From an uncultured Verrucomicrobiae bacterium (GTDB taxonomy: Bacteria > Verrucomicrobiota > Verrucomicrobiia > Limisphaerales > Palsa-1400), in assembly GCA_963764165.1 (NCBI GenBank), contig CAVXRD010000002.1:3392001-3456000 (forward strand): DNA of 64,000 bases, in the 5' to 3' direction. The translations under genes and the position numbers were made by a program. Below the pieces are notes generated by a model that saw only the letters and a list, made by a program, of their open reading frames with translations, searched no databases and was not told the origin of the DNA. Shown here one piece after another: positions 7,563-27,032 of this stretch. Every line of letters starts with the position of its first letter. Position 1 is the first letter of the stretch.

Positions 7563-8663
7563 TTGATCTCTGCATAATATAGTGACACATTATTGTTTTT
7601 ATGCTAATTTTTGGGTATGGGAAATCCTAAAGGCGTAAAACGCGATTTGGCGCAGTTTGCACAACTGGAACGGCGGCGCATGAAAGCCGTCAAACTTTTC
7701 GACCGAGGCTTGAGCCAGGCCGAGGTCGCCCGCCAAGTTGGCGTCCACCGGCAATCGGTCAGCCGCTGGCATAAGGCTTGGCAGGACCATGGCGCGCCCT
7801 CTCTCAAAAAGGCTGGGCGAGCCGGGCGCAAGCCCCGCCTGACCGACGAGAACTTCCGCCAGTTGGAACGGGCCCTCAAACAGGGACCCGAAGCCCATGA
7901 CTTTGGCACCCAGCTTTGGACCACCCGGCGGGTGGCCGCCGTTATCCAACGGTTGACGGGCGTCCAATACCACGAGGACCATGTTTGCCGGCTTCTGCAA
8001 AAGCTGGGTTGGAGCTGCCAGCGGCCCACCACCCAGGCTCGGCAGCGCCATGAGCGGGAGATCACCCGCTGGCGCAAAGTGCGCTGGCCGCAGCTTAAAA
8101 AAAAGCCCTCCGCGAGAGGCGAATCGTGGTTTTCATCGACGAGAGCGGATTGAGCCAGAAGCCGCACCGGGTTCGCACTTGGGCGCCGCGCGGCCAGACC
8201 CCGGTATTGCAGTTCGACTTCAACTGGAAAAAGCTTTCGATCATCGCCGGGGTGACGGTCTGGAACTTTTACTTCCGGCTTTACCCCGGCACCATCAAAG
8301 GCCCGCAGGTGATCGAATTCTTGAAACATCTGCAACGCCACATCCCGGGCAAGCTTCTGGTCATTTGGGACGGTGGTCCCATCCACCGCAGCCGGCTGGT
8401 GCGGGACTATGTGGATCAACTGAAAGGCAAAATCTGGGTGGAACGACTGCCTGCCTATGCGCCCGAACTCAATCCCACCGAGTATGTCTGGGGTTACTTC
8501 AAGCAGCACGAGTTGCCCAATCTTTGCGCGGCCGACCTGGCGAAGTTGAGTCATTGCGGGCGCAAGGCCCTGAGCCGGATGCGGCGCAGACCCAAATTGG
8601 TCACTGCCTTCTGGAAGCAAGCCGAGCTTTGGTGATATTGTCACTATATTATACAGAGATCAA
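7563..8663 (+). mobile_element. IS630-family insertion sequence (1101 bp), TA target duplication
   Basis: TIRs TTGATCTCTGCATAATATAGTGACA / TGTCACTATATTATACAGAGATCAA (1 mismatch); TA at 7561-62 and 8664-65. Confidence 0.92.
7617..8635 (+). CDS. IS630 transposase expressed by -1 frameshift (HTH ORF to 8153; DDE ORF to 8635)
   Basis: HTH (GLSQAEVARQVGV; WT...V) then FIDESG, WDG..H, LPAYAPELNPTE; A-AAA-AAG at 8099-8105. Confidence 0.9.
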
Positions 8664-14401: not shown

Positions 14402-15781
14402 CTAATTATTCCCCTGCGCGGTGGCTAATTCGCGGCGCGAGAATAGAATAATCCCCGCCAGGCAAAAAAAGCCGCCCAAAATGACGATGATTTGCAGCGC
14501 GGCGCGGCCTAATTGGCTCCACGTAATGCTTCGGCCGGAACTGAGGGACTCGATTGGCGAAAAATCCTGCACCATCCGCAGGATTTTAAGAACCCCCTGA
14601 AATATCGGCACCGCTGCGTAGTCAACAATCGAGTGCCCATAGGCGCTCTTGCTCGAGTCGAAACCAACAATGGTGCCCTGCTCCACCACCGTCGCCACCG
14701 TCCCGCTGGATAGCCCGATGAACAGCACCGCCAGCGACACAAAGGCCGCCACCGGGAAAGAAAGAAAACTCGCCGCCGCCAGGCCGATCGACGCCAGCAG
14801 CGCGAGCCAGCAAAAAATGATGCACAGCCCGCGGATGAAATTGATGCCGAAACCGCTTTCGGGATAGAGCAGTTCCATTCCATCTTCGAGCGGGAAGATC
14901 AAGTCCGTCTCGTTCGGATTCCCCATTTCGATCCAGAGGCGCCCCTTATCGTCAAGCATATTCTCCGGCAGGGTGAATTCCTGGAACGAATCCGGCGGAA
15001 ACGTCTCCGCCAGTTCCATCTGGCGCGGCGAACCGGGTGGGCCGACGCGCCAAAGGGTGGTGTATTGAGTTTCGGGATTCATGTCGCCGGTGTGGAATTT
15101 GATCCGCAACTGCAGTTTCTTGCCCTTGACTTTATCTTGAATGCGGTGAAGATCGACGCCCCAGCGCTTTACCATTCGCGACCCCAGCACCGTATAGTTT
15201 GTCTCGAGGCGCGCGGTGATTTGTCTTCGAACTTCGCTCAGATCGAAATCGCTCATTGCCGAAGTATCCTTGATGTTCTTCTTGATGATCGCGTCGACGT
15301 CCTTGCTGAAGTCCGGTTTGGGTTCCTTGGCGGAAGCGCGGGAGACAAAAATGTCCTCACGCAGATATTTTTGCTGCTCAGGGGAAAGCTGGCTGGCGCG
15401 GAATTGCAAAATGCCGTAAATCGCAATCCCCGCCAAAGCGAGCAAAACCGCGTCCAGCGACAGGAGGCCGAGCCATTTTCCCATCCAGATTTGCCAGCGG
15501 GCGATGGGTTTGACGACGACCATTTGGATCTGGCATTCCTCGACGTCGCGGGCGAGCGTGCCGCAGGAGAGCCACAAGGTTGCAAATCCAAGCAGGGTGG
15601 CGGTCGCGCTGAGTGTGTAAGTCAGAAGAATCTGCACCATGCCCTGCGCCGTGCCGTCATCCTTCAGCAGAAGCGGCAATCCCAGAACGGCCCCGGCCAG
15701 AAGCGCGCAAAGAATCCAAAAAAGCTTGTAGCGAAAGGCGGCCTTCCAAGTCAGGCCGGCAATGGTCGCAATCTTGTTCAT
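14402..15781 (-). CDS. ABC-2-type permease with large extracytoplasmic domain
   Basis: IAGLTWK.A.R, VVKPIARWQI..GKWLG, C-terminal FSRRELA; about 6 TM plus soluble insert. Confidence 0.8.
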   Translation of the reverse strand: MNKIATIAGLTWKAAFRYKLFWILCALLAGAVLGLPLLLKDDGTAQGMVQILLTYTLSATATLLGFATLWLSCGTLARDVEECQIQMVVVKPIARWQIWMGKWLGLLSLDAVLLALAGIAIYGILQFRASQLSPEQQKYLREDIFVSRASAKEPKPDFSKDVDAIIKKNIKDTSAMSDFDLSEVRRQITARLETNYTVLGSRMVKRWGVDLHRIQDKVKGKKLQLRIKFHTGDMNPETQYTTLWRVGPPGSPRQMELAETFPPDSFQEFTLPENMLDDKGRLWIEMGNPNETDLIFPLEDGMELLYPESGFGINFIRGLCIIFCWLALLASIGLAAASFLSFPVAAFVSLAVLFIGLSSGTVATVVEQGTIVGFDSSKSAYGHSIVDYAAVPIFQGVLKILRMVQDFSPIESLSSGRSITWSQLGRAALQIIVILGGFFCLAGIILFSRRELATAQGNN

Positions 15782-17013
15782 TTACTGCCCGGCTTGCCCA
15801 AGAGGGAGGAAAGTTTTTCGTTCGCCTTGCTCAATTCCGCCGGCGTGGGCGCGGGAGCGGGTGCGTCTTCGGCGGGCGCGGGCGGCGGAGCAGCAGGCGC
15901 GGGCACGGGCGCCGACGCTTTGGAAAGCGAGGCGAGTTTTCCTTCGTTAATCTTCGGCGCGGGCGCGGCGGCAACGGGAGCTGGCTCTTCCGGTTTCGGG
16001 GCGCTGACAGTCAATCGCTCCAGCAATTGGTCGCCCTTGGCCCCGGCTTCAGCGTCACCGCGCAGATAAGCAGCCACACGGCTGCCCGAAGTTGCGCCGG
16101 AAGTTTCCGACATCGTTTCCTTGGCTTTTCGGACGACATCGAGAAAATAGCTTTCGAGATTTTGCGTCGGATTATCGATTTGCACCTTGTCGGCTTCAAC
16201 GTCCTTGCGGATCAAATTCAGGATCGTCTGCATGTGATCGCGCGGTATCGCTGGCATTGTGATGCGGACGGAATCGGGCTTGGCCAGCAGTTCGCGCAAA
16301 GGCCCTTGCGCGTGAATGCGTCCGCCGTAATAAATCACCACGCGGTCACAGACATCCTCAACATCGGCGAGCAAATGGCTGCTGAGAATGACCGTCTTGC
16401 CGCGGCGGGCGAGGGCGAGAATCAAATCCTTCACTTCGCGGCAGCCAATCGGATCAAGGCCGGCCGTCGGTTCATCCAAAATGACCAAATCGGGATCGTT
16501 GATGAGCGCCTGGGCCAGGCCGATGCGCCGCTGCATGCCCTTGGAAAATTCCCCGACCACGCGCGTGCGAACCTGGCTCAAGCCCACCATTTCCAGCAGT
16601 TGCTCGTTGCGCTCCTTGCGTTTGTCAGCGGGCAGGTCGAACAAGTTGCCGAAAAAATCGAGCGTCTCGTGCGAATCAAGAAAACGATAGAGATAAGACT
16701 CTTCCGGAAGATAACCGATGTGCGCCTTGCTGGGAACGTGCCGGGGCGAATGGCCAAAAACCTCGATGTGGCCGCGCGTCGGCCGCAGCAGGCCGAGCAG
16801 CATTTTCACGGTGGTCGATTTGCCGGAGCCGTTCGGCCCCAGCAACCCAAAGACCTCACCCTTCTTGACTTCGAAATCAACGTTGTCGACTGCCTTGGCC
16901 TTGGGACGGCCCCAGAAATCCGTGTAGATTTTGGTCAGGCCGCGAACGGAAATGACCGTCTGGCCGGATTTGCCGCTGGGCGGCGCTGTCAAAGAGTCAA
17001 CGACAGCGCTCAT
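15778..17013 (-). CDS. ABC transporter ATP-binding protein with Pro/Ala-rich C-tail
   Basis: GPNGSGKST, FSKGMQRR, ILDEPT, SSH. Confidence 0.95.
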   Translation of the reverse strand: MSAVVDSLTAPPSGKSGQTVISVRGLTKIYTDFWGRPKAKAVDNVDFEVKKGEVFGLLGPNGSGKSTTVKMLLGLLRPTRGHIEVFGHSPRHVPSKAHIGYLPEESYLYRFLDSHETLDFFGNLFDLPADKRKERNEQLLEMVGLSQVRTRVVGEFSKGMQRRIGLAQALINDPDLVILDEPTAGLDPIGCREVKDLILALARRGKTVILSSHLLADVEDVCDRVVIYYGGRIHAQGPLRELLAKPDSVRITMPAIPRDHMQTILNLIRKDVEADKVQIDNPTQNLESYFLDVVRKAKETMSETSGATSGSRVAAYLRGDAEAGAKGDQLLERLTVSAPKPEEPAPVAAAPAPKINEGKLASLSKASAPVPAPAAPPPAPAEDAPAPAPTPAELSKANEKLSSLLGKPGSK

Positions 17014-19100
17014 GCGGCGGCAGCGGCGGGCCGCAGGGCGGCTTTCGGCGCGTTAGAGGGCGTGGGCGGCGCGGGCGGAGCCGGCAGCGCAGGCGCGAGA
17101 TGCGGCTCCAATTCCTCACCCTGGCGGACGAGGCGGGCGCTGTTGAAAACCACCAGCAGCGAACCCACCACGTGCAAAACAGCGGCGATAATAGGGTCGA
17201 TGATCTTGAGCGCAGCCATAATCAGACCGCCAATCACGAACATAATGCCGATTAGGAAATTCTGATTGATGACAGAACGGGTCTGGCGCGAAAGGCGCAC
17301 CAGGAACGGGAGCCGGCGCAGATCGTTGTTCATCAGCGCAATGGTCGCGCTATGAACCGCGACCTCGCTGCCCGCCGCGCCCATCGCGATGCCCAGATCG
17401 CCTGCGGCCAGCGCCGGAGCGTCGTTGACACCATCGCCGACAACGGCGACGCGGTAGCCTTTGGCCTTCATCGCACGGACAAATTCCACTTTGTTCTGCG
17501 GCAAGCATTCGCCGAGAACTTCCGGGCAGCCGATTTCCTTGGCCACGCGCGATGCCACCGGCTGGCGGTCGCCGGAGACCATCGCAATCCGGCGGACGCC
17601 CGTCGTTTTCAAATCCGCCAGCGCTTCGCGGGCTTCAGCGCGGGTTTGGTCTTCCAACCCGACCCAGCCAATGCACTGATTATTGCGCGCGACGAAAATC
17701 AGACTGAAACCTTCCGTCTCATTCAAATCGACAGACTTGAGGAAATCATCACGGACGCCGTGGTCTTTGAGCCATTGGGCGCGTCCTACAAAAACCAGCG
17801 CGCCATCGATGCTGGCGGCCACGCCGCGCCCGGCGGTTTCCGCGAAATCCTTCGGTTCAGCCAGCGTAACGCCCGCTTCGCCGGCCAATTGGGCCAGAGC
17901 CTTGGCGGTCGGATGGTTGCTGTATTTCTCGGCGGAAGCCGCGATGCGGAGCAAGTCCGCCGGGGCCGTCCCGCCCAGCGGAGCGAGGCGGCTGACGGCC
18001 AGCTTGCCGGTCGTCAACGTGCCGGTTTTGTCAAATACAAAAGCATTGATGCGGGCGGCGAGTTCAATATCGCCCACGTTTTTGATGAGGATGCCAAGGC
18101 GGGCGGCGGCGGAAAGCGCCGCGACCATTGCGCTGGGCGTGGCCAGAATGAAGGCGCATGGGCAGCTCACGATGAAGACCGCAATCACGCGGCTCAGATC
18201 GTTGGTAAACGCCCAAACCAAAGCGCCGATCACCAGCACGAGCGGCGTATAGAAGCCCATGTATTGATCGATGATGCGCATGATCGGCAGGCGCGTTCTT
18301 TCCGCGGCAAGGATCAAATCGCGCACTTTTCCGAGCGTCGTGTCTTCGCCGGCGCGGGTGACTTTGATTTCGAGCACGCCGGTCAAATTCTGTGTGCCCG
18401 CAAAAACTTCGTCTCCGATTTTCTTGTCCACGGGCAAAGATTCACCGGTGATGTTGGCCTGGTTCAATGAACCCTGGCCGCTGACAATCGTGCCATCAGC
18501 CGCAACGTTATCGCCGGGGCGGACACGGATGACATCGCCCACTGAGAGCAGGCGAGTCTCCACTTCCTCTTCCGTGGCGCCCTTCACCCGGCGGGCTTTG
18601 GGTGGCGTCAATTTGATGAGCGATTCAATCGAAGCGCGCGCGCCTTCTGCCGTGCGTGTTTCAATAATCTGCCCGAGAAGCATGAAGAAAGCGATCAAGC
18701 CCGCTTCCTGAAATCCATTCACTTGGCGGACAAAGGTGCTGCCACCGAAATCGGAGGCCGCCGCGCCAAACGCCGCCAAAACCGCCAGCGAAACCAGTTC
18801 GTTTGTCGTCAGCAATCCCTTGCGCAAATCCTCCACCGAAGCCCAAATAATGGGCGCGCCCAAAATGATGGCGCCGAACATCGCGCTGGCCGCCGCAATG
18901 GGATTGCCAGCGTCCAGAATCCAGTTCATCACAAACGAATTCAAAACCAAAACGACGCCCACCAGCGTCCACGCCATGGAAAGCGCGACGTGCGAATGGT
19001 CGTGGCCGTCGTGGCCGTGATCGTGGTGATGGTCGTGGCCGCAACCACACGCGTCATCGAGCGCATCGTTTTCGCGGCTTAATAGTGAGGTCACTCGCAT
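17010..19100 (-). CDS. P1B-type heavy-metal translocating ATPase with His/Cys-rich N-terminus
   Basis: CGCGHDHHHDHGHDGHDHSH, TGES, SCPC, DKTGT, HP, GDGVND. Confidence 0.93.
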   Translation of the reverse strand: MRVTSLLSRENDALDDACGCGHDHHHDHGHDGHDHSHVALSMAWTLVGVVLVLNSFVMNWILDAGNPIAAASAMFGAIILGAPIIWASVEDLRKGLLTTNELVSLAVLAAFGAAASDFGGSTFVRQVNGFQEAGLIAFFMLLGQIIETRTAEGARASIESLIKLTPPKARRVKGATEEEVETRLLSVGDVIRVRPGDNVAADGTIVSGQGSLNQANITGESLPVDKKIGDEVFAGTQNLTGVLEIKVTRAGEDTTLGKVRDLILAAERTRLPIMRIIDQYMGFYTPLVLVIGALVWAFTNDLSRVIAVFIVSCPCAFILATPSAMVAALSAAARLGILIKNVGDIELAARINAFVFDKTGTLTTGKLAVSRLAPLGGTAPADLLRIAASAEKYSNHPTAKALAQLAGEAGVTLAEPKDFAETAGRGVAASIDGALVFVGRAQWLKDHGVRDDFLKSVDLNETEGFSLIFVARNNQCIGWVGLEDQTRAEAREALADLKTTGVRRIAMVSGDRQPVASRVAKEIGCPEVLGECLPQNKVEFVRAMKAKGYRVAVVGDGVNDAPALAAGDLGIAMGAAGSEVAVHSATIALMNNDLRRLPFLVRLSRQTRSVINQNFLIGIMFVIGGLIMAALKIIDPIIAAVLHVVGSLLVVFNSARLVRQGEELEPHLAPALPAPPAPPTPSNAPKAALRPAAAAA

Positions 19101-19103
19101 AGG

Positions 19104-20174
19104 CTAAGGATTTGGAATGGAAACAGGCGTCGGCGCCTCCAGTTCCCGGCTTAAATTAAAGCGAACTTCCTTCGAATTCGGCGGGATCGTGATTTTGTCC
19201 ACCGCGTTCGTGTAGACGTTGGCAAGAACAGACATTTGTTTGATGCGCTTGAAAAGCTCCGGGTCCCGCTGGTATTGGGCCAGCAGCTTCTTGAAAGCGT
19301 CAGCTTGGGCGGCCATGGAATCGACCCGGTATTTCCGTATCGCATCGGCCACGCGGATGCGGGTATCGGCTTCGCCCTTGGCGTGAGCGATAACGTTCGT
19401 GGCATACGTCTGCGCGTCTTCGACTAATTTCTGGCGCAATTGCATCGCTTTGGTGACCTCATTAAACAGCGGCTTGAGATACATCGGCGCCGATGCGCCC
19501 CAATCCACATAATCCACCGTAAGGCCAAGTTTCTCGTCGTCAACCACCTGATTTACTTGGCGTTGAATGCGTTCGCGGAAAGCATCGCGGTTGGTGGTGA
19601 GAATGGCGTCCACCGTGAATTCGCTGGCGGCGCTCAAGAGGGCGTTATTCAGCGTATTGGTCAAAAACGCCGTCGCGTCGACAAAGCCGAATTGGAAAAC
19701 CGTCGGGTCGGTGATGTGATATTTCGCATCGACCCAGAGATGTATAATATTAGTGTCCGCCGTGATGGCGTAGGTCCAAGATGCCGGATTGAGCTTCTGC
19801 ATGGCCGGCGGCTCGGCCTGGCCGATGCTGCGCTCGTAGGCGGTCTGATACCAGCCAACGGCTGATTCTGCGTTCGTCAGCGAGGTGATTTTCAGGGTGA
19901 CGATTGAATCAATCGGCGCTGGAAAGGCCCAATGAGCGCCCGGCCCCAGCAGTTTTCCGCCATCGACCGGTTTCCCCATCCGCAGGCGAATGGCCGCTTC
20001 CGAAGGGCCGACTGTGAAAAATCCTGAGCCGAGAAAAACCAGCACCAGCGCCACCATGATCACTTGGACAATGATGAAGCTGCTGCGCATCGCCTCCGCC
20101 AGCGCCAGCGAACCGGCGTCTTCCGGCGGCGGAGTCTGCTCCGGGGGCAGTGCGTTGGGATCGAGGTCGCTCAT
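19104..20174 (-). CDS. SPFH/HflK-like protein
   Basis: One TM, GFFTV, GPGAHWAFPAPID, ITADTNI, coiled coil AKGEA; start overlaps upstream TGA. Confidence 0.85.
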   Translation of the reverse strand: MSDLDPNALPPEQTPPPEDAGSLALAEAMRSSFIIVQVIMVALVLVFLGSGFFTVGPSEAAIRLRMGKPVDGGKLLGPGAHWAFPAPIDSIVTLKITSLTNAESAVGWYQTAYERSIGQAEPPAMQKLNPASWTYAITADTNIIHLWVDAKYHITDPTVFQFGFVDATAFLTNTLNNALLSAASEFTVDAILTTNRDAFRERIQRQVNQVVDDEKLGLTVDYVDWGASAPMYLKPLFNEVTKAMQLRQKLVEDAQTYATNVIAHAKGEADTRIRVADAIRKYRVDSMAAQADAFKKLLAQYQRDPELFKRIKQMSVLANVYTNAVDKITIPPNSKEVRFNLSRELEAPTPVSIPNP

Positions 20175-21088
20175 TTGTCTTTCTTGCTCGGTTCCTCCAT
20201 CTTCAGCCACTGCAACGGCGAGGTGCTGAGGTCGAGAACCAGCGTCGTCTTCTTTTTCAAAAATTGCTCGAGCGCGTCCATCTGCATGTTGAAGGCCGCC
20301 AATTCCGGATTCTCCTGCATGATTTGCAGCGACTTCATCATTTCGGCTTCGCCTTCCCCGCGAATCTTGAACGCTTCGGCCTCGGCGTCATACAAAAGTT
20401 TGGCGGCCTGGCCATCGGCTTCCGCCCGGATGCGGGTGGCATCCAATTCACCCTGCGACGTCACGTTGGTGATATAATAGACCCGCTCCGATTTCATGCG
20501 GTCGAAAACTTCCGCCGTCACGCTTTCCGGGAGGCCGATCTTTTGAATTTGCACAAACTTGATTTCGACGCCGAAGTTGTTGGTCGCGTTGTGGACGCGG
20601 TTTTGGACATCGTCCAGGATTTCCTTTTCGATGCTGGCGAACTTCATTTCACCCGGGGTGGCGGAAATGAAATCTGAGAAAACGTGGCGGCCCGCCACGG
20701 CGTTCTTGGAACTGCGAACGATTTCCGTCAAGGTTTTTTCCGCTTCTGGAATCGAGCCGTCCGCAACTTTCACGAAGAAATTCGTCGGATCATTGATGCG
20801 GTAGCCGACATAGACTGAAAGCAGGATAATGCTCTGGTCGTGGAGTTTGATTTCTTCGAATTTTCCCTTGGCTTCAAAATTCTGGATGCGCTGGTCGAGC
20901 TTGAAAACGCGCTCGATGGGCGAGGGCAGGCGGAAGCCGGGGCCGGGAGTGGATTTGACGCGGGCAAGGCGTCCGAACCGGGTGACGACCGCCACTTCGG
21001 ACGGGCGCACCTGGTAGACGAACAGCATCAGGCCAAAGACAATCAACAAGACGAAGGCTACTGCCAATGTAAGGGGCTTGCGTTTCAT
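20171..21088 (-). CDS. SPFH/HflC-like protein
   Basis: VYQVR..EVAVVTRFG, PG..F.LPSPI, DQRIQ, GLPESV...VFDRMKSER, IRGEGEAE. Confidence 0.88.
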   Translation of the reverse strand: MKRKPLTLAVAFVLLIVFGLMLFVYQVRPSEVAVVTRFGRLARVKSTPGPGFRLPSPIERVFKLDQRIQNFEAKGKFEEIKLHDQSIILLSVYVGYRINDPTNFFVKVADGSIPEAEKTLTEIVRSSKNAVAGRHVFSDFISATPGEMKFASIEKEILDDVQNRVHNATNNFGVEIKFVQIQKIGLPESVTAEVFDRMKSERVYYITNVTSQGELDATRIRAEADGQAAKLLYDAEAEAFKIRGEGEAEMMKSLQIMQENPELAAFNMQMDALEQFLKKKTTLVLDLSTSPLQWLKMEEPSKKDK

Positions 21089-21089
21089 A

Positions 21090-22961
21090 TCATTTCGAAG
21101 TCGGCTTAGTCAGGTTCCCGATTAAGTCATCGCGGATTTTGTCCTCAAGATTGAAGATCGGGATGTTCGGCGCATTGGTGGTGGCGATAATGTATTTGCG
21201 CGAGTCGGCGCTGTTTTCAACCAGCGCCCTCAAATAAGCCTGCTGTTCGTAAATTCCTTTCGGGCCTGGCGAGGCGGCGTAGGCTTTTTGCTGGCTGGCA
21301 AAAAGAATGGCCCGGGCGGCGGAGTTGGTGGCCGCCCCGTGCAAATCAGCCTGGGCGCTGGCAACCTTCTGGAAGCTTTCGCCTGTGGCAGTGGCGTTGG
21401 TGGCAATGGCATGCGCCCGCGCCTGCAAAATCTTCGACTCGCGCTTTTCCGAGGCGCCGACCACTTGCTCAAAGACGTCGGCCACCTTCGACGGCGGGTG
21501 AACATCCTCCAAACCCACGAAAAGAATTCGCGCCCCAAGCTGCTTCGCATCCGCCTCGGATTGGATATTTTGCTGCAAGGTGCTTTCGGCGTCAGCCCGG
21601 CCGCGGGACATCAAATCGTCAAAATTCGCGCTGGAAAGGTAACGGACAACCGCGCGTTCGGCGATGTTCGTCAAAAGTGTCACCGGATCTTCGTTGGTGT
21701 AGGCCCAACTGGACAGATTGGTAATCTGGTATTGAACCGGAATGCTGACGGAAACGAGGCTGACCGGCGGGCTCTTCTCCTCAATTTGCGCGGCGGAGGG
21801 GGCGTCGGCATTCAACTCGACGCTCGCCACCAAATAATTCTCTTCCTTGGCGTGCTTGACGGTCCAAGTAACGGTGTCGTTTGGATCCGGCTCCGCGCCA
21901 ACGAGGAAAGTCTGGATGCGGTCGGTGTGATAAACCGTCGTTTGGCCAATCGGCCACGGGGGTTTCACATGGAGCCCCGGCCCAATCAAGCCTGTTTCGC
22001 CCATCGGCTTGCCGAAACATTCCAGCAACGCCTCATCGCCCGGGTCAATCACCACAAAGCATGTTGAAAGCACCAAAATGGCAAATTGCGCCAGCAGCAG
22101 CCAACCCAACGCGCTTTCCAAAAAACGGTAGAACCAAGTATCAGAAACTTTGAAGCCAAATTGATAGTCCAACGCGTGCGCTGCCGTCGTGATGATCGCC
22201 TCCGGCTGGCCCAGCAAACCGACCAGACGGCTCTCGTAAAGCAGCCGCGTTTCGCGGCCTTCCACGCGGACGCGGTATCCTTCCAGCACGAGCGCTAGCA
22301 ACGTTTCGACCGCCGCAATCCCGGAAATCACACAGAAAACCCGCGCCACGATAATATCGATTCGGGCGACGCCCGACAAATACGCCGCGATCGCCCCAAT
22401 CACGATCAGGCACGAATACGCGCTCAACAGCATGTAGGCCGAGCTGGGGCGCAAGAGCTTGATGCCTTTGAGACGGGCCAGTCCGCTCGAATACTTGCCC
22501 AGCAGGAACAGAATCATCCCCATCAACCCGAGGAAGGACATCGCCAGCGTCGCCCGTTCTTTGATAAGAGGTGGAACGCCCGGCAGCTTCTGCCACGCCA
22601 GCCATGCGCCCAGCGCTTCAAGGACAAAGAGAATCGCCGCGAAGCTCGGAATGATGAAGCGCTCGAATTGTTCGCGGGAGCGCCGGGCAGGGAACGTGTC
22701 GCCGCCAGCGGTGGAAAAAAGCGACTCGCTGCCGCGGGACTTGCTCAGTTCCTCCATCTCCATTTTCTCGAACTCTTCCCGCTCAAGCAGGCCGATGTGG
22801 AAAAAGTTGAGGAGCGCCACCAGAAGCCCAAAGCCGGTCAAAATCGCCGCCATGGTGGCAGCGCCCGAGCTCAGGTAGCTGGAAATCAGCAGCAGGGCCA
22901 AAGTTGCGCCCAGCAGCACCACCAGGTTCATCAACGATGTCTTTTTTGTATTTTGGTCCAT
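21090..22961 (-). CDS. Long HflK-like SPFH protein with multi-TM N-terminal domain
   Basis: About 7 hydrophobic segments, then FG..GPGLHVKPPWPI, VQYQI, DVHPP..VA..FE.VVGA. Confidence 0.8.
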   Translation of the reverse strand: MDQNTKKTSLMNLVVLLGATLALLLISSYLSSGAATMAAILTGFGLLVALLNFFHIGLLEREEFEKMEMEELSKSRGSESLFSTAGGDTFPARRSREQFERFIIPSFAAILFVLEALGAWLAWQKLPGVPPLIKERATLAMSFLGLMGMILFLLGKYSSGLARLKGIKLLRPSSAYMLLSAYSCLIVIGAIAAYLSGVARIDIIVARVFCVISGIAAVETLLALVLEGYRVRVEGRETRLLYESRLVGLLGQPEAIITTAAHALDYQFGFKVSDTWFYRFLESALGWLLLAQFAILVLSTCFVVIDPGDEALLECFGKPMGETGLIGPGLHVKPPWPIGQTTVYHTDRIQTFLVGAEPDPNDTVTWTVKHAKEENYLVASVELNADAPSAAQIEEKSPPVSLVSVSIPVQYQITNLSSWAYTNEDPVTLLTNIAERAVVRYLSSANFDDLMSRGRADAESTLQQNIQSEADAKQLGARILFVGLEDVHPPSKVADVFEQVVGASEKRESKILQARAHAIATNATATGESFQKVASAQADLHGAATNSAARAILFASQQKAYAASPGPKGIYEQQAYLRALVENSADSRKYIIATTNAPNIPIFNLEDKIRDDLIGNLTKPTSK

Positions 22962-22998
22962 TGCAAATTAGACTGCCCGGCCTCGATTTAGTTCCAAC

Positions 22999-23961
22999 TC
23001 AGTTCAACTCCCGGTCCTCAAACAACATTAGGGCCATCGCGAGGGTGGCGCCGATATAAGCGCACGCATACCCGAACGCTTTGGCCAGATAGCTCAACGG
23101 TATTGTATTCTTACCTTCCAAGGCGTCCGCAAGCCAGAATAATTGCCAGTTCGGAGTCACCGCGTAAAGAATAGAAGCCCACCAGGAACCCGCTTTCGCG
23201 CGTTCGCCCCAGAAATAATCGGACATCAATCCCAGCAAAAACAGCGCTGAAATGATGGCCAGCGTCGGAATCACGTCCAGCCGGGTCGAGCAAGCCAGCG
23301 CCAGCGCCGCCAAGATCAGCAACGCCATCAACAGCAGCGCGGAAGCCGGAATGACCCGCCAATCGATGCCTTCGTAGCTCTCACCCATCCGAATCGCCTC
23401 GCGCGGAATGAACTGCAAAACCGCAAAAGCCACCACCGCCATGATCACCACCCCAAAAACCGCATCCGAAACAAACGGGCGGCGCAGAAAGTAATTGCTG
23501 AATGCCGCCAATACATATGCCAGCGCAATGGACCCAGTGAACACGCCCAAGCCCGGATAATCGACATCCCCGTAAGCATCAAAGGCCATGCGTGTGGCCA
23601 TCAGCGCGCCAATCATGTTGACAAAGGCGAGGAGGGTAAGGGCCATGGCCAGGCCGGCATACTTGCCAAACAGAAACTTGCTGCGGCTGACGGGCTTGGC
23701 CATGACCGCCAAGGCCGTTCCGCTGCGAATTTCCCGCGCCACAGAAGCCGAAGCGCTCAAGACCGCGCCGAACAAACCCGCCAGGAACATCACCGCCAAG
23801 GCGGTGTTTTTGACCAGCTTGGGCTCATCGCCAAATCCGAAATAATTGACGCAAGCCAGAGCGACCTCAAACAAAGTCGAGAGCGTCATTAGCAGCAGGT
23901 AGACCGGCTGCCGAATCAGCTCCATGAAGGCGTTCCCAGCTATGGTTATAAATTGGCGCAT
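22999..23961 (-). CDS. ABC-2-type permease
   Basis: IAGNAFMELIRQP, EIRSGT..V.AKPVSR..FLFGKY.G, FEDRELN; start at MRQF. Confidence 0.85.
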   Translation of the reverse strand: MRQFITIAGNAFMELIRQPVYLLLMTLSTLFEVALACVNYFGFGDEPKLVKNTALAVMFLAGLFGAVLSASASVAREIRSGTALAVMAKPVSRSKFLFGKYAGLAMALTLLAFVNMIGALMATRMAFDAYGDVDYPGLGVFTGSIALAYVLAAFSNYFLRRPFVSDAVFGVVIMAVVAFAVLQFIPREAIRMGESYEGIDWRVIPASALLLMALLILAALALACSTRLDVIPTLAIISALFLLGLMSDYFWGERAKAGSWWASILYAVTPNWQLFWLADALEGKNTIPLSYLAKAFGYACAYIGATLAMALMLFEDRELN

Positions 23962-24232
23962 GTTGCTTGGGCAGGCAAGACTGCCGGAAGCTGGGCCAAG
24001 CTTAAAGAAAAATCCCCTTTTTGCAATGTGTCCTTTCGGCGCACAGGGGGGCAGGGCGTGTCGCACTCTTGGTCGGAGGACTGGTTCTTCCGCTCCGCTG
24101 GGAGCGAAATCAAAGATTCCGGGTCTGCGGCGCTTCAGGGCCAAGCCGGCATGAAGAATTTTGTCGCGCACCCTCTGGCTGCCTCATTGGATGAGGCGGC
24201 CTTGTGAGCGGCGGTGATCTCCGGTATTATCA

Positions 24233-25594
24233 ATGCACATGAATCGGACGGCAAAATTTCGGCTGACGGCGCTTGGGATCGCCGCCGCCTTGCTGGGCGT
24301 GCTGATCGCGCTGGCCAGCTTTCTGTCGCAGCGCCAGTCCGGCCTGCTCCGCCGGCAACTGGCCCAGGTCGATTCCGAAAGCGCCAGCATCTCCGAACAT
24401 TTCAAGGATTCGCTGCGCGAGGTCAACACGATCCGCCTCCGTTACATCATGGATGGCGATCCGGCGGCGTGGGAGCAATTTCAGAAATCCAGCCATGACT
24501 TGAGCGATTGGTTGAACAGTCAAACCCCTTCCCTGACCACATCCCGCGAGAAGGAATTGTTGCGCGACGTGAAAACCGCCTATTTCGATTACCTGGATGT
24601 CTCGCGGCAGATGTACCAAATCTCGCAAACGAACCGCCAGCCGGCCGATATCCTCAACGAATTCACCAACTCGCGCGCCCAATCACAGCATCTGTTCGAT
24701 CTCGGCCAATCGCTGGCCCGCGCGCATTCCGAATCGCGCAATCTAGTTCTGGCCCAGGCCAGCACGACGCTCAACCAGTTGCGGCAGTCCGTGCTGGCGC
24801 TGGTGGGATTGCTTTACCTCTTTGGCATTGCATTGGCGGCGCTGGCCTACCGTGATCTTGTCGTGCCGCTTCGGGCGAAATTGGTGGAAACGCAATCGCT
24901 GGCGGAACGCCACGAAAAACTGGCCTCGCTGGGCATGCTGGCGGCGGGGGTGGCCCATGAAATCCGCAATCCGCTCACCGCGATCAAAGCCGCCGTTTTC
25001 ATCCAGCAAAAGAAATTCACTCCCGGGTCGCAGGAAGCCGCCGACTCCGCCTTGGTGCAGCGCGAGATTTCCCGTCTGGAGCGCATCGTAACCGAGTTTC
25101 TGCAATTCGCGCGCCCATCAGAACCGGAACTTGCCAGCATGCAAAGCGACCAGCCGCTGAGGGAAGTTCAGTCTCTCCTCGGCCCAAGCCTGGCTCGCCA
25201 GAACATTCGCCTTTTGGTGGAGGATTCCTCGCCGATGCCCGTCAAGGTGGACGGCGAACAGATGAAACAAGTCCTCATCAATCTCGTTCAAAACGCCGCC
25301 GACAGCATCGGGCATGACGGCGCGATCACGCTGCGCGCGCGGCCGGACCGCATCCCGCTCGGAAACGGCGAGACGGATGTGGTGGTGTTGGAAGTCGCGG
25401 ACACCGGGCAAGGCATTGCGCCAGACGTGGAAAAGCGGTTGTTTGATCCGTTCTTCACCACCAAGCCGGAAGGGACGGGTCTTGGACTTTCCATCGCCGC
25501 CTGCATTATTCAAAAGCACGGCGGCGCGCTGCAGTACCAAACCCGCGTCAATCACGGCACCACCTTCGGCGTCATTCTCCCGCGCGCCGCCTGA
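24233..25594 (+). CDS. Sensor histidine kinase (2 TM, helical periplasmic sensor)
   Basis: AHEIRNPL, NLVQNA, DTGQG, FFTTK..GTGLGL. Confidence 0.95.
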   Translation: MHMNRTAKFRLTALGIAAALLGVLIALASFLSQRQSGLLRRQLAQVDSESASISEHFKDSLREVNTIRLRYIMDGDPAAWEQFQKSSHDLSDWLNSQTPSLTTSREKELLRDVKTAYFDYLDVSRQMYQISQTNRQPADILNEFTNSRAQSQHLFDLGQSLARAHSESRNLVLAQASTTLNQLRQSVLALVGLLYLFGIALAALAYRDLVVPLRAKLVETQSLAERHEKLASLGMLAAGVAHEIRNPLTAIKAAVFIQQKKFTPGSQEAADSALVQREISRLERIVTEFLQFARPSEPELASMQSDQPLREVQSLLGPSLARQNIRLLVEDSSPMPVKVDGEQMKQVLINLVQNAADSIGHDGAITLRARPDRIPLGNGETDVVVLEVADTGQGIAPDVEKRLFDPFFTTKPEGTGLGLSIAACIIQKHGGALQYQTRVNHGTTFGVILPRAA

Positions 25595-25604
25595 TTTTGG
25601 CCAC

Positions 25605-27032
25605 ATGAGCACGGGGGCAAAAATATTGTTGATAGAAGATGACCCGGGCATCAGCGACACCTTGCGGCGTTTGCTGGCCGAGGAAGGGCACGAGGTGGCC
25701 GTTGAACGCCGCGGCGACGAAGGATTGGCTCGCGCGGGACGCGATATCTTCAATCTCGTCATTACGGATTTGCGTCTGCCGGGTTTGTCGGGTCTCGATT
25801 TAGTGCGTCAGCTTCATGCCGCCCAGCCGCGTCTCCCGATTATTTTGACGACCGCCTACGGCACGACAGAGACGGCCATCGAAGCCACCAAATTCGGCGC
25901 GTATGATTACTTGCTGAAGCCGTTTGATTTCCCGCAATTGATCGAACTCGTTCGCAAAGCCGCCGATAGCAATCGCCTGATGTCCGAACCGGTCACGCTC
26001 GGCGCTGGCGGAGCAAACGACGCGCTCGTTGGCCAGAGCGCGGCAATGCAGGCAATTTACAAGGAAATCGGGCGCGTCGCGTCGCGGCCGGTGCCGGTCT
26101 TGATTCGCGGCGAAACGGGCACAGGCAAGGAATTGATCGCCCGCGCGATTTATCAGCATAGCGATCGCTCGGGCGCGCCGTTCATCGCGGTCAATTGCGC
26201 CGCGATTCCCGAGACGCTGCTGGAGAGCGAATTGTTCGGCCACGAAAAAGGCGCCTTCACCGGCGCGCAGGCGCGGCGCATCGGGAGATTCGAGCAGGCC
26301 CATCGCGGCACCATTTTGCTGGATGAAATCGGCGACATGACCCCGGCCACGCAAGTCAAGCTGGTGCGTTTTTTGCAGGAGCGCCGCTTGCAGCGGCTCG
26401 GCGGGCGGGAGGATATTCCTCTTGACGTTCGCGTGCTGGCGGCGACCCATCGCGATTTGGAAACGGCCATCGCGCAAAAGGAATTTCGCGAGGATCTGTA
26501 TTACCGGCTGAATGTCGTTGCCATCAACCTGCCGCCGCTGCGCCAGCGCCGCGAGGATATTGGCGATTTGACGCGCTACTTCCTGCGCAAGCACGGCCCG
26601 AGCCTTGGCCACGCCGAGCCAAGCATCCAATCCGAGGCGATTGAATTTCTCGAGGCGGAACCGTGGCCGGGAAATGTGCGGCAGCTTGAAAACGTCGTCC
26701 GCAAAGCGCTGCTGCTGGCGCAAAATTACACAATCAACGCCGGCCATGTCCGCACTGTGCTTGACAAGCCGCCCGCCCCGGATTTTTCGCCAAAGCGCGC
26801 CTTCGGCGATTACATCGGCGAGCTGCTGGCGTCGGCAAAACGGGGGGAATTGTCGGACGCGCACGCCCGCGCCCTCGGGGCGGCGGAGCGGGAGTTGTTC
26901 ACCCGCGCCATCGCGGAAGCCGGGGGCAACCAGGCGAAAGCCGCCCGCTGGCTTGGCGTCACCCGCGTGACGATGAAAGCGAAATTGGTGCAGTTTGGCC
27001 TGTTCGAAAGTCCGGAGAAATTGGAGGGGTAG
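25605..27032 (+). CDS. NtrC-family sigma54-dependent response regulator
   Basis: REC domain, GETGTGKE, GAFTGA, DEIG, WPGNVRQL, Fis-type HTH. Confidence 0.95.
   Translation: MSTGAKILLIEDDPGISDTLRRLLAEEGHEVAVERRGDEGLARAGRDIFNLVITDLRLPGLSGLDLVRQLHAAQPRLPIILTTAYGTTETAIEATKFGAYDYLLKPFDFPQLIELVRKAADSNRLMSEPVTLGAGGANDALVGQSAAMQAIYKEIGRVASRPVPVLIRGETGTGKELIARAIYQHSDRSGAPFIAVNCAAIPETLLESELFGHEKGAFTGAQARRIGRFEQAHRGTILLDEIGDMTPATQVKLVRFLQERRLQRLGGREDIPLDVRVLAATHRDLETAIAQKEFREDLYYRLNVVAINLPPLRQRREDIGDLTRYFLRKHGPSLGHAEPSIQSEAIEFLEAEPWPGNVRQLENVVRKALLLAQNYTINAGHVRTVLDKPPAPDFSPKRAFGDYIGELLASAKRGELSDAHARALGAAERELFTRAIAEAGGNQAKAARWLGVTRVTMKAKLVQFGLFESPEKLEG

Follow-up and report, generated by a model that had tools for sequence, protein, structure and literature searches.

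What brings three HflK/HflC-type SPFH proteins, a P1B-type metal ATPase and a divided ABC-2 transporter together in one operon? The question is raised by seven open reading frames, all on the minus strand, in a 64-kb window (the whole stretch of DNA analysed here) from the 7.0-Mb, 97% complete genome of an uncultured Verrucomicrobiae bacterium. Read 5' to 3', they encode permease A, a long HflK-type protein (K1), an HflC-type protein (C), a second HflK-type protein (K2), the P1B pump, an ABC ATPase and permease B (Table 1). Of the six junctions, the first, second and fourth are gaps of 37, 1 and 3 nucleotides, and the third, fifth and sixth are ATGA overlaps. Pfam assigned ABC2_membrane_2 to permease A, Band_7 to each of K1, C and K2, E1-E2_ATPase and Hydrolase to the pump, ABC_tran to the ABC ATPase and, below the cut-off, ABC2_membrane_2 to permease B. 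These co-oriented genes and their junctions had been listed in a first-pass annotation of this DNA and were confirmed, at the same coordinates, by the reading frames, Pfam and NCBIfam; its list of parts lacked the CDF-fold domain of K1 and an eighth gene, both described below. As an answer we consider it quite probable that the pump and the SPFH trio belong to a single physical unit.

A scan of species genomes returned at least 583 relatives of K1, most with Verrucomicrobiota titles, Limisphaerales and Pedosphaera among them, and the best 80 were kept for locus counts; the related genomes are kin, and counts from them are not independent. Permease A lies directly upstream of K1 in 75 of the 76 testable loci, and the full seven-gene order was found in 46 of the 51 loci with enough DNA. 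Because the order recurs in this way, the operon is not a chance arrangement. Among the five exceptions, L011 does possess the complete set by tblastn, and the other four (L018, L036, L043 and L058) end at the pump. The neighbourhood survey for which the first-pass annotation had called thus speaks for conserved synteny, and the order of the core genes recurs in proteobacterial modules.

In the predicted structure of K1, six long helices at the N terminus precede an anchor helix (residues 276-299) and an HflK-like remainder, the parts following one another as CDF-fold domain, anchor helix, SPFH domain and coiled coil. Comparison of residues 7-230 by VIA-align gave SLC30A10 as the best match (Z-score 14.8, root mean square deviation 3.1, 175 aligned residues), followed by ZnT3 (Z 13.9) and, lower, ZnT1, 4, 7 and 8. 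Helical bundles call for caution up to about Z 13, a level that Z 14.8 exceeds; ferritin-like bundles came near Z 9 against the K1 model. Using hhalign, the K1 N-terminal profile aligned end to end with a family of CDF-HflK fusion proteins (92.9%, E 3.7e-7), and three membrane proteins of the operon used as controls stayed below 2%. For K1, Foldseek returned nothing but SPFH matches, and a search of the ESM Atlas with residues 1-285 returned only unnamed clusters, at 0.79. Four His/Asp ligands are kept in 120-122 of the 122 CDF-HflK fusion rows, and K1 has none of them: no His/Asp/Glu/Cys-rich column occurs at residues 3-59, and the sites on transmembrane helix 5 (TM5) are Tyr/Trp/Phe and Gly/Ser. 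The N terminus of K1 is therefore predicted, on the model and these profiles, to have a CDF fold without a metal site.

Relatives of K1 show what else can occupy this position. Cation_efflux and Band_7 domains occur together in 120 of 120 CDF-HflK fusion relatives among the matches listed, and at one locus (L157) an intact CDF-HflK fusion heads the SPFH triad, with a P1B gene two genes on. At two others (L151 and L152) a P1B pump is fused to a K1-type SPFH domain and is followed by the C and K2 genes. Relatives of these pump-SPFH fusions number 140 at E <= 1e-50 among 8000 sequences scored, those with names coming mostly from Planctomycetota, and both Hydrolase and Band_7 are present in 120 of 120 among the matches listed. 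In a quick tree (as were all SPFH and pump trees here, with SH-aLRT support only), the SPFH part of K1 groups with both fusion types with a support of 99. Since K1-type SPFH domains are fused to CDF domains or to pumps, these sequences and models point to one slot with three kinds of transporter: in different bacteria it is filled by a P1B pump or by a CDF, the latter either intact or without its metal site. The link between cage and pump that the first-pass annotation had drawn is strongly backed by these natural fusions. A further SPFH protein of 716 residues (L153:9345-11495), followed by an HflC-like gene, has about 420 N-terminal residues without a Pfam family, possibly another cargo.

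The CDF and P1B transporter folds both end in the cytoplasm, and therefore the anchor helix that follows would place the SPFH dome in the periplasm. There it may sit over the outer face of the transporter. The SPFH dome of E. coli HflK/C is periplasmic (PMC12048511; for this and the other papers cited, statements refer to the accessible portions). We propose that K1, C and K2 assemble into a periplasm-facing cage around their own P1B pump, which would move a divalent metal, probably zinc, from the cytoplasm into the cage, where envelope proteins would be loaded with it. The site-less CDF domain of K1 may dock the pump in the membrane and would be dispensable where pump and SPFH domain are one chain. 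The NosY-like ABC complex and an eighth protein may use ATP to handle the client or a metal carrier rather than to export drugs. The complete chain, from a cage around its own pump to metal passed outward for the loading of envelope proteins, is put forward tentatively, at rather less than an even chance. Among its parts, a role in metal supply rather than detoxification is favoured, an outward flow of metal into the cage is favoured by a narrow measure, and membership of the ABC genes in the same machine is evenly balanced. It is likely that the cage has its task in metal handling and is not devoted to the FtsH protease alone.

The pump is identified as a P1B ATPase by its DKTGT and TGE sequences, CPx motif and family score. 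In 95 aligned homologues DKTGT is conserved in 94, CPC in 87 and His643 in 93, and at least four N-terminal His residues are present in 76. His643 is at the M6 position that is Asp in ZntA and Met in CopA, as read from the alignment, and His in the His-Glu-Gly pumps. In the tree, the module pumps of this phylum group with those of proteobacteria in a single clade (support 100), and CopA and ZntA lie outside it. Comparison with the defined subclasses (PMC13460109, bioRxiv 2020.01.10.902569) set aside P1B-1 (CopA), as the pump has His rather than Met in M6 and falls outside the CopA clade, and P1B-2 (ZntA), as it has His rather than Asp in M6 and falls in a separate clade. Also rejected were P1B-4, which has SPC in M4 and His-Glu-Gly in M6 (the pump has CPC, and Glu follows the His in 3/95 only), and P1B-6 or CtpC-like pumps, defined by SCA in M4 or N-X18-H-N-X-(S/T), since the window pump has CPC and His-Val; the tree has no FezB or CtpC row. 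A divalent metal is the likely substrate, and zinc is a guess by analogy with the Pseudomonas data below. The pumps of L116, L132, L135 and L138-L140 lack one or both Cys residues of CPC but keep the M6 His, and could transport a different ion or no ion at all.

Plasmid records of Burkholderia, Klebsiella aerogenes and Rhizobium (L081-L083) have K1, C, K2 and pump genes in the same order (the pump of L081 lies in two frames). By sequence, the core of the window and these proteobacterial modules are orthologous subunit by subunit. The C subunits of L081 (10228-11271) and L083 (10191-11210) have His-rich N termini (13 and 10 His among residues 1-40), a feature that C of the window does not share. 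In P. aeruginosa, the cluster PA2434-PA2439 combines HmtA, a P1B pump, with three HflK/HflC genes; it is raised 5.6- to 14.4-fold when znuA is mutated (PMC4542158) and is elevated in zinc-depleted proteomes, in which the exporter CadA is lowered (PMC11761036), and Zur binds the PA2439 promoter (PMC8531726). A three-SPFH operon of strain PA14, PaFlo5-7, has also been described, a triple mutant forming about 20% less biofilm; the word ATPase is absent from the accessible text, and deletion of all nine SPFH genes gave only subtle phenotypes under the conditions tested, with zinc limitation unmentioned there (PMC13086221). Protein lengths in its supplement of 666/346/337 for P. aeruginosa and 631/347/347 for Burkholderia match L081, although the accessions seem out of register, so that the support is weak. 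The accessible part of PMC2636767 mentions neither ATPases nor Verrucomicrobia. The description of this locus as an undescribed machine in the first-pass annotation thus has to be narrowed: the core of SPFH trio and P1B pump was already in print as a gene cluster with zinc-starvation data. Targeted literature searches, with subscription papers and bioRxiv supplements beyond reach, found, among the papers listed, none on the CDF-derived domain of K1, the fusion series, the NosY-like permeases, the eighth gene or the verrucomicrobial operon as such.

Upstream of permease A, a palindrome TGTGCG-N6-CGCACA (two mismatches at most) was found in 29 of 71 regions against 1 of 70 in-gene controls, the motif having been derived from the same set. 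Its spacing is fixed in 28 of the 29 matches, and the window copy (24027-24045, minus strand) is degenerate. The palindrome is probably a regulator site.

The catalytic motifs of the ABC ATPase are intact: the Q-loop, signature and H-loop are the same in 50 of 51 rows, and Walker A occurs in all 51. Its C-terminal extension (window 15778-16200, minus strand) has two conserved short motifs around a Pro/Ala-rich linker. With profiles searched against the PDB, NosY was the best match for both permeases, weakly in each case (E 0.012 for A and 0.00054 for B). The permease B model matched NosY by VIA-align with a Z-score of 21.0 (root mean square deviation 3.3, 239 aligned residues), and the next entry, at Z 16.6, was 4.4 lower; Foldseek missed NosY. 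The domain inserted in permease B weakly resembles carbohydrate-binding modules (Z about 8). NosDFY is an ATP-driven helper of copper delivery to an envelope enzyme. A NosY-like fold is no proof of function, and the ABC arm is the least firmly attached part of the system.

Counted in favour of the proposed metal-loading cage are the rise of the Pseudomonas cluster under zinc limitation in RNA and in protein, the binding of Zur and the match of permease B to NosY. A number of observations weigh against it. The analysis yielded no client protein. The K1 profile does not match E. coli YiiP alone significantly (0.9%), and fused and unfused pumps unite with a support of only 77. CPC with an M6 His fits no P1B subclass cleanly and 8 of the 95 homologues lack an exact CPC, so the motifs leave the metal open. 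AT-rich Zur/Fur-like palindromes were present in 22 of 71 upstream regions, compared with 6-16 in shuffles, and share no consensus. The ABC arm is absent from the three proteobacterial loci and from the 4 of 51 close loci in which the operon ends at the pump; it is detached in two genomes of the order, G234 and G278, lying 176 kb away in the latter. The window core is only probably the same module as the hmtA locus of P. aeruginosa; no Pseudomonas-named protein is among the 120 homologues listed. One study found hmtA mRNA not to be zinc-repressed (PMC8531726), and a review describes HmtA as a selective Cu/Zn importer, the opposite direction of transport (PMC8456098).

That description is the basis of the most credible alternative, which we nevertheless regard as unlikely: the cage would gather or shelter periplasmic metal and the pump, like HmtA, would bring zinc or copper into the cytoplasm. 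Induction of the cluster by zinc depletion and the Zur site at PA2439 would suit import, and the window pump does group with the proteobacterial module pumps. Against import, sister cages carry CDF domains with intact sites, and the E. coli fieF annotation makes CDF an exporter family; the lack of zinc repression of hmtA and the fact that orthology to HmtA itself is inferred count against this reading as well.

It is improbable that the trio is simply the HflKC of this lineage, caging FtsH, with the pump and ABC genes as co-regulated neighbours. K1, C and K2 belong to the SPFH superfamily, with Band_7 above the Pfam cut-off in each and an anchor and coiled coil evident in the K1 model and fold matches, and all three score below the NCBIfam hflK and hflC cut-offs. 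They are nevertheless the best HflK/HflC matches of the genome, which has no hflK above the cut-off and two ftsH genes, and 29 of 41 genomes of the order likewise have no hflK above the cut-off. The other 12, however, keep a separate hflK above the cut-off in addition to the trio. K1, C and K2 of this phylum each group with their proteobacterial counterpart (support 98), apart from six canonical HflK/HflC pairs; the phylogeny proposed in the first-pass annotation as a check thus places the trio in clades of its own, and these clades and the fusions of SPFH domains to pumps and CDFs argue against mere FtsH service. The same annotation had stressed that no ftsH lies in the window. This is correct, with no FtsH peptidase domain found there, but is uninformative because E. 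coli hflKC, which adjoins hfq, hflX and yjeT, has no ftsH beside it either. The FtsH-contact residue of HflK is named as Arg191 (PMC12048511), whereas residue 191 of RefSeq HflK is Ala, so the two numberings differ. Elsewhere in the genome of the window, a gene for a stomatin-like SPFH protein is separated by about 5 kb from a pump of the CopA clade (G000:C2:494877-501965, L173), and in another genome permease B is about 2.3 kb from a canonical hflK, on a different contig from the trio (G236:C5:127476-132084).

The distribution of the module bears on whether it detoxifies. All 81 genomes sampled from the order, down to one size of 2.6 Mb, have K1, and 80 of them have permease B. By manual comparison of tables, the two are within about 9 kb in 60 of these, on different contigs in 19 and 176 kb apart in G278, and permease B was not found in the remaining one. 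In the wider phylum, matches at E <= 1e-5, some of them weak, occur in 89 of 201 genomes; two families have 31/32 and 17/17, and in others the counts are 2/17, 2/15, 0/17 and 0/12. In 40 further phylum regions, picked from the better matches, unfused K1-C-K2 occurs in 37, with the pump adjoining in 35. The ABC gene and permease B accompany 18 of these 37 loci, a co-oriented permease A lies upstream in 11, and all seven genes are in the window's order in 3. Near-universal presence in the order, even in the smallest of these genomes, fits housekeeping better than a resistance island. It also tells against a role in detoxification, in which the operon would form an efflux platform of the kind of the PacL-CtpC effluxosome in mycobacteria, stabilised by the SPFH proteins as a scaffold; we rank this reading just below FtsH service in probability. 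CtpC has CPC and a His-Asn near M6 and needs a scaffold (PMC13460109, PMC9374683), and among the module pumps 30 of 95 have His-Asn at the M6 site and 76 have His-rich N termini. Effluxosomes, however, form without flotillin (PMC9374683), and the Pseudomonas cluster goes up when zinc is scarce while the exporter CadA goes down.

The conserved unit is larger than the window's operon. In 36 of the 80 close loci, permease B is followed by a gene for a protein of about 510 residues that has a single predicted membrane helix and matches no Pfam family; the same gene follows it in each of the 18 distant loci with permease B. In the genome of the window this eighth gene is about 107 kb off (C2:3297448-3298989) and adjoins a different P1B ATPase; of a unit of eight genes the window thus contains seven, the eighth having moved in this genome. 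The displaced gene is directly before the other ATPase, which has ATPase-cat_bd and HMA domains (G000:C2:3297448-3302089; L172:7449-12090). Least probable of all is that two unrelated modules share the operon, a cage-pump unit and an ABC-2 transporter that with the eighth gene moves or senses, for example, a lipid or glycan: the missing and detached ABC arms, the distant eighth gene and the carbohydrate-binding likeness of the permease B insert would allow it, but the permeases stand on either side of the core and junctions overlap, the closest fold is that of NosY, and the arm is linked to the core in at least 60 of 81 order genomes and in 18 of the 37 phylum loci. The enclosure of the ABC-2 complex in the cage, as the first-pass annotation had suggested, is unproven, given the proteobacterial versions without ABC genes and the relatives with detached ones, and we found nothing to support its suggestion of lipid remodelling.

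The role of bacterial SPFH cages with clients other than FtsH is open; here the gene set itself names the client, and in the fusions the protein chain does so. The proposed cage could explain the odd results obtained with HmtA and reveal how envelope enzymes receive their metal when it is in short supply. In its widest form, which we regard as possible but doubtful, the proposal is of a widespread undescribed class of SPFH cage in which K1 provides a swappable metal-transporter slot. It would act as a periplasmic metallation chamber, with metal fed by the pump and envelope enzymes presented by a NosFY-like motor and an anchored partner, and the eight-gene form would be core machinery of this verrucomicrobial order.

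Coordinates of the operon and its possible promoter are collected in Table 1. Two overlapping reading frames at window 7611-8635 (plus strand) look by eye like an IS630-type transposase. Divergent from the operon, at 24233-27032 (plus strand), are a sensor kinase and a sigma-54 response regulator (by Pfam), which do not rank among the best conserved neighbour clusters.

Table 1. Features of the SPFH-pump operon, in order of transcription, with positions in the window
Feature	Position	Strand	Evidence
Permease A, ABC-2/NosY-like, 320 aa	22999..23961	-	PF12679 E 2e-7; NosY the sole PDB profile match at E <= 1, E 0.012
K1, long HflK-type SPFH protein, 623 aa	21090..22961	-	Band_7 at 304-518; TIGR01933 85.9 bits, cut-off 159.4; model mean pLDDT 85.7
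K1 residues 7-230, six-helix CDF-fold domain without transport-site His/Asp, predicted pseudo-transporter	22272..22943	-	VIA-align, hhalign
C, HflC-type SPFH protein, 305 aa	20171..21088	-	Band_7; TIGR01932 116.2, cut-off 134.4; own clade
K2, second HflK-type SPFH protein, 356 aa	19104..20174	-	Band_7; TIGR01933 122.8, cut-off 159.4; own clade
P1B-type ATPase, His-rich N terminus, CPC in M4, His643 in M6, 696 aa	17010..19100	-	TIGR01525 528.6 bits (over cut-off), motif counts, tree
ABC ATPase, catalytic motifs intact, conserved C-terminal extension, 411 aa	15778..17013	-	PF00005
Permease B, NosY-like fold, inserted beta-sandwich at about residues 147-307, 459 aa	14402..15781	-	Model mean pLDDT 87.9; NosY best fold match
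Possible promoter, degenerate TGTGCG-N6-CGCACA palindrome beside sigma-70-like hexamers	23999..24045	-	Palindrome scan; hexamers read by eye
aa, amino acids; pLDDT, predicted local distance difference test score.

Several known systems have features in common with the operon. With PA2434-PA2439 and PaFlo5-7 it shares three HflK/HflC-type SPFH genes and a P1B ATPase in one cluster, but that cluster lists no ABC ATPase or NosY-like permease, and in the accessible text of the papers on it the SPFH proteins are not tied mechanistically to the pump. The proteobacterial modules are patchy and were judged to be horizontally transferred, whereas the window's module is near-universal in its order. The PacL-CtpC effluxosome (PMC9374683, PMC13460109) likewise combines a P1B pump having CPC and an M6 His with dependence on a co-encoded scaffold; PacL, however, is small and faces the cytoplasm, its foci form without flotillin, and N-X18-H-N-X-(S/T) does not occur in the window pump. 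NosDFY (PDB 7O0Y) is similar through NosY, to which permease B comes closest in fold and which heads the PDB profile matches of both permeases. It differs in that identity is 16%, the window has two unlike permeases, one with an inserted beta-sandwich, and the operon and flanking genes scanned, as the part of the genome searched, had no Pfam match to nosD, nosL or nosZ.

The CDF transporters (YiiP/FieF, ZnT/SLC30) and the CDF-HflK fusions have the same six-helix membrane fold as K1, which keeps the conserved TM6 Asp (94/106). K1 differs in that the His/Asp ligands of TM2 and TM5, retained by the fusion family, are missing, and in having an SPFH domain where CDFs carry a cytoplasmic domain. The E. 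coli HflK/HflC-FtsH complex (PDB 7VHP, 7VHQ, 7WI3, 9CZ2; PMC12048511) shares the SPFH fold and the pairing of K and C subunits, and HflK is the best match of the C-terminal half of K1 in both sequence and fold. The window, by contrast, encodes three subunits rather than two, all below the family cut-offs and in clades of their own, with neither hflX nor DUF2065 neighbours, and its K1 carries an extra six-helix CDF-fold domain.

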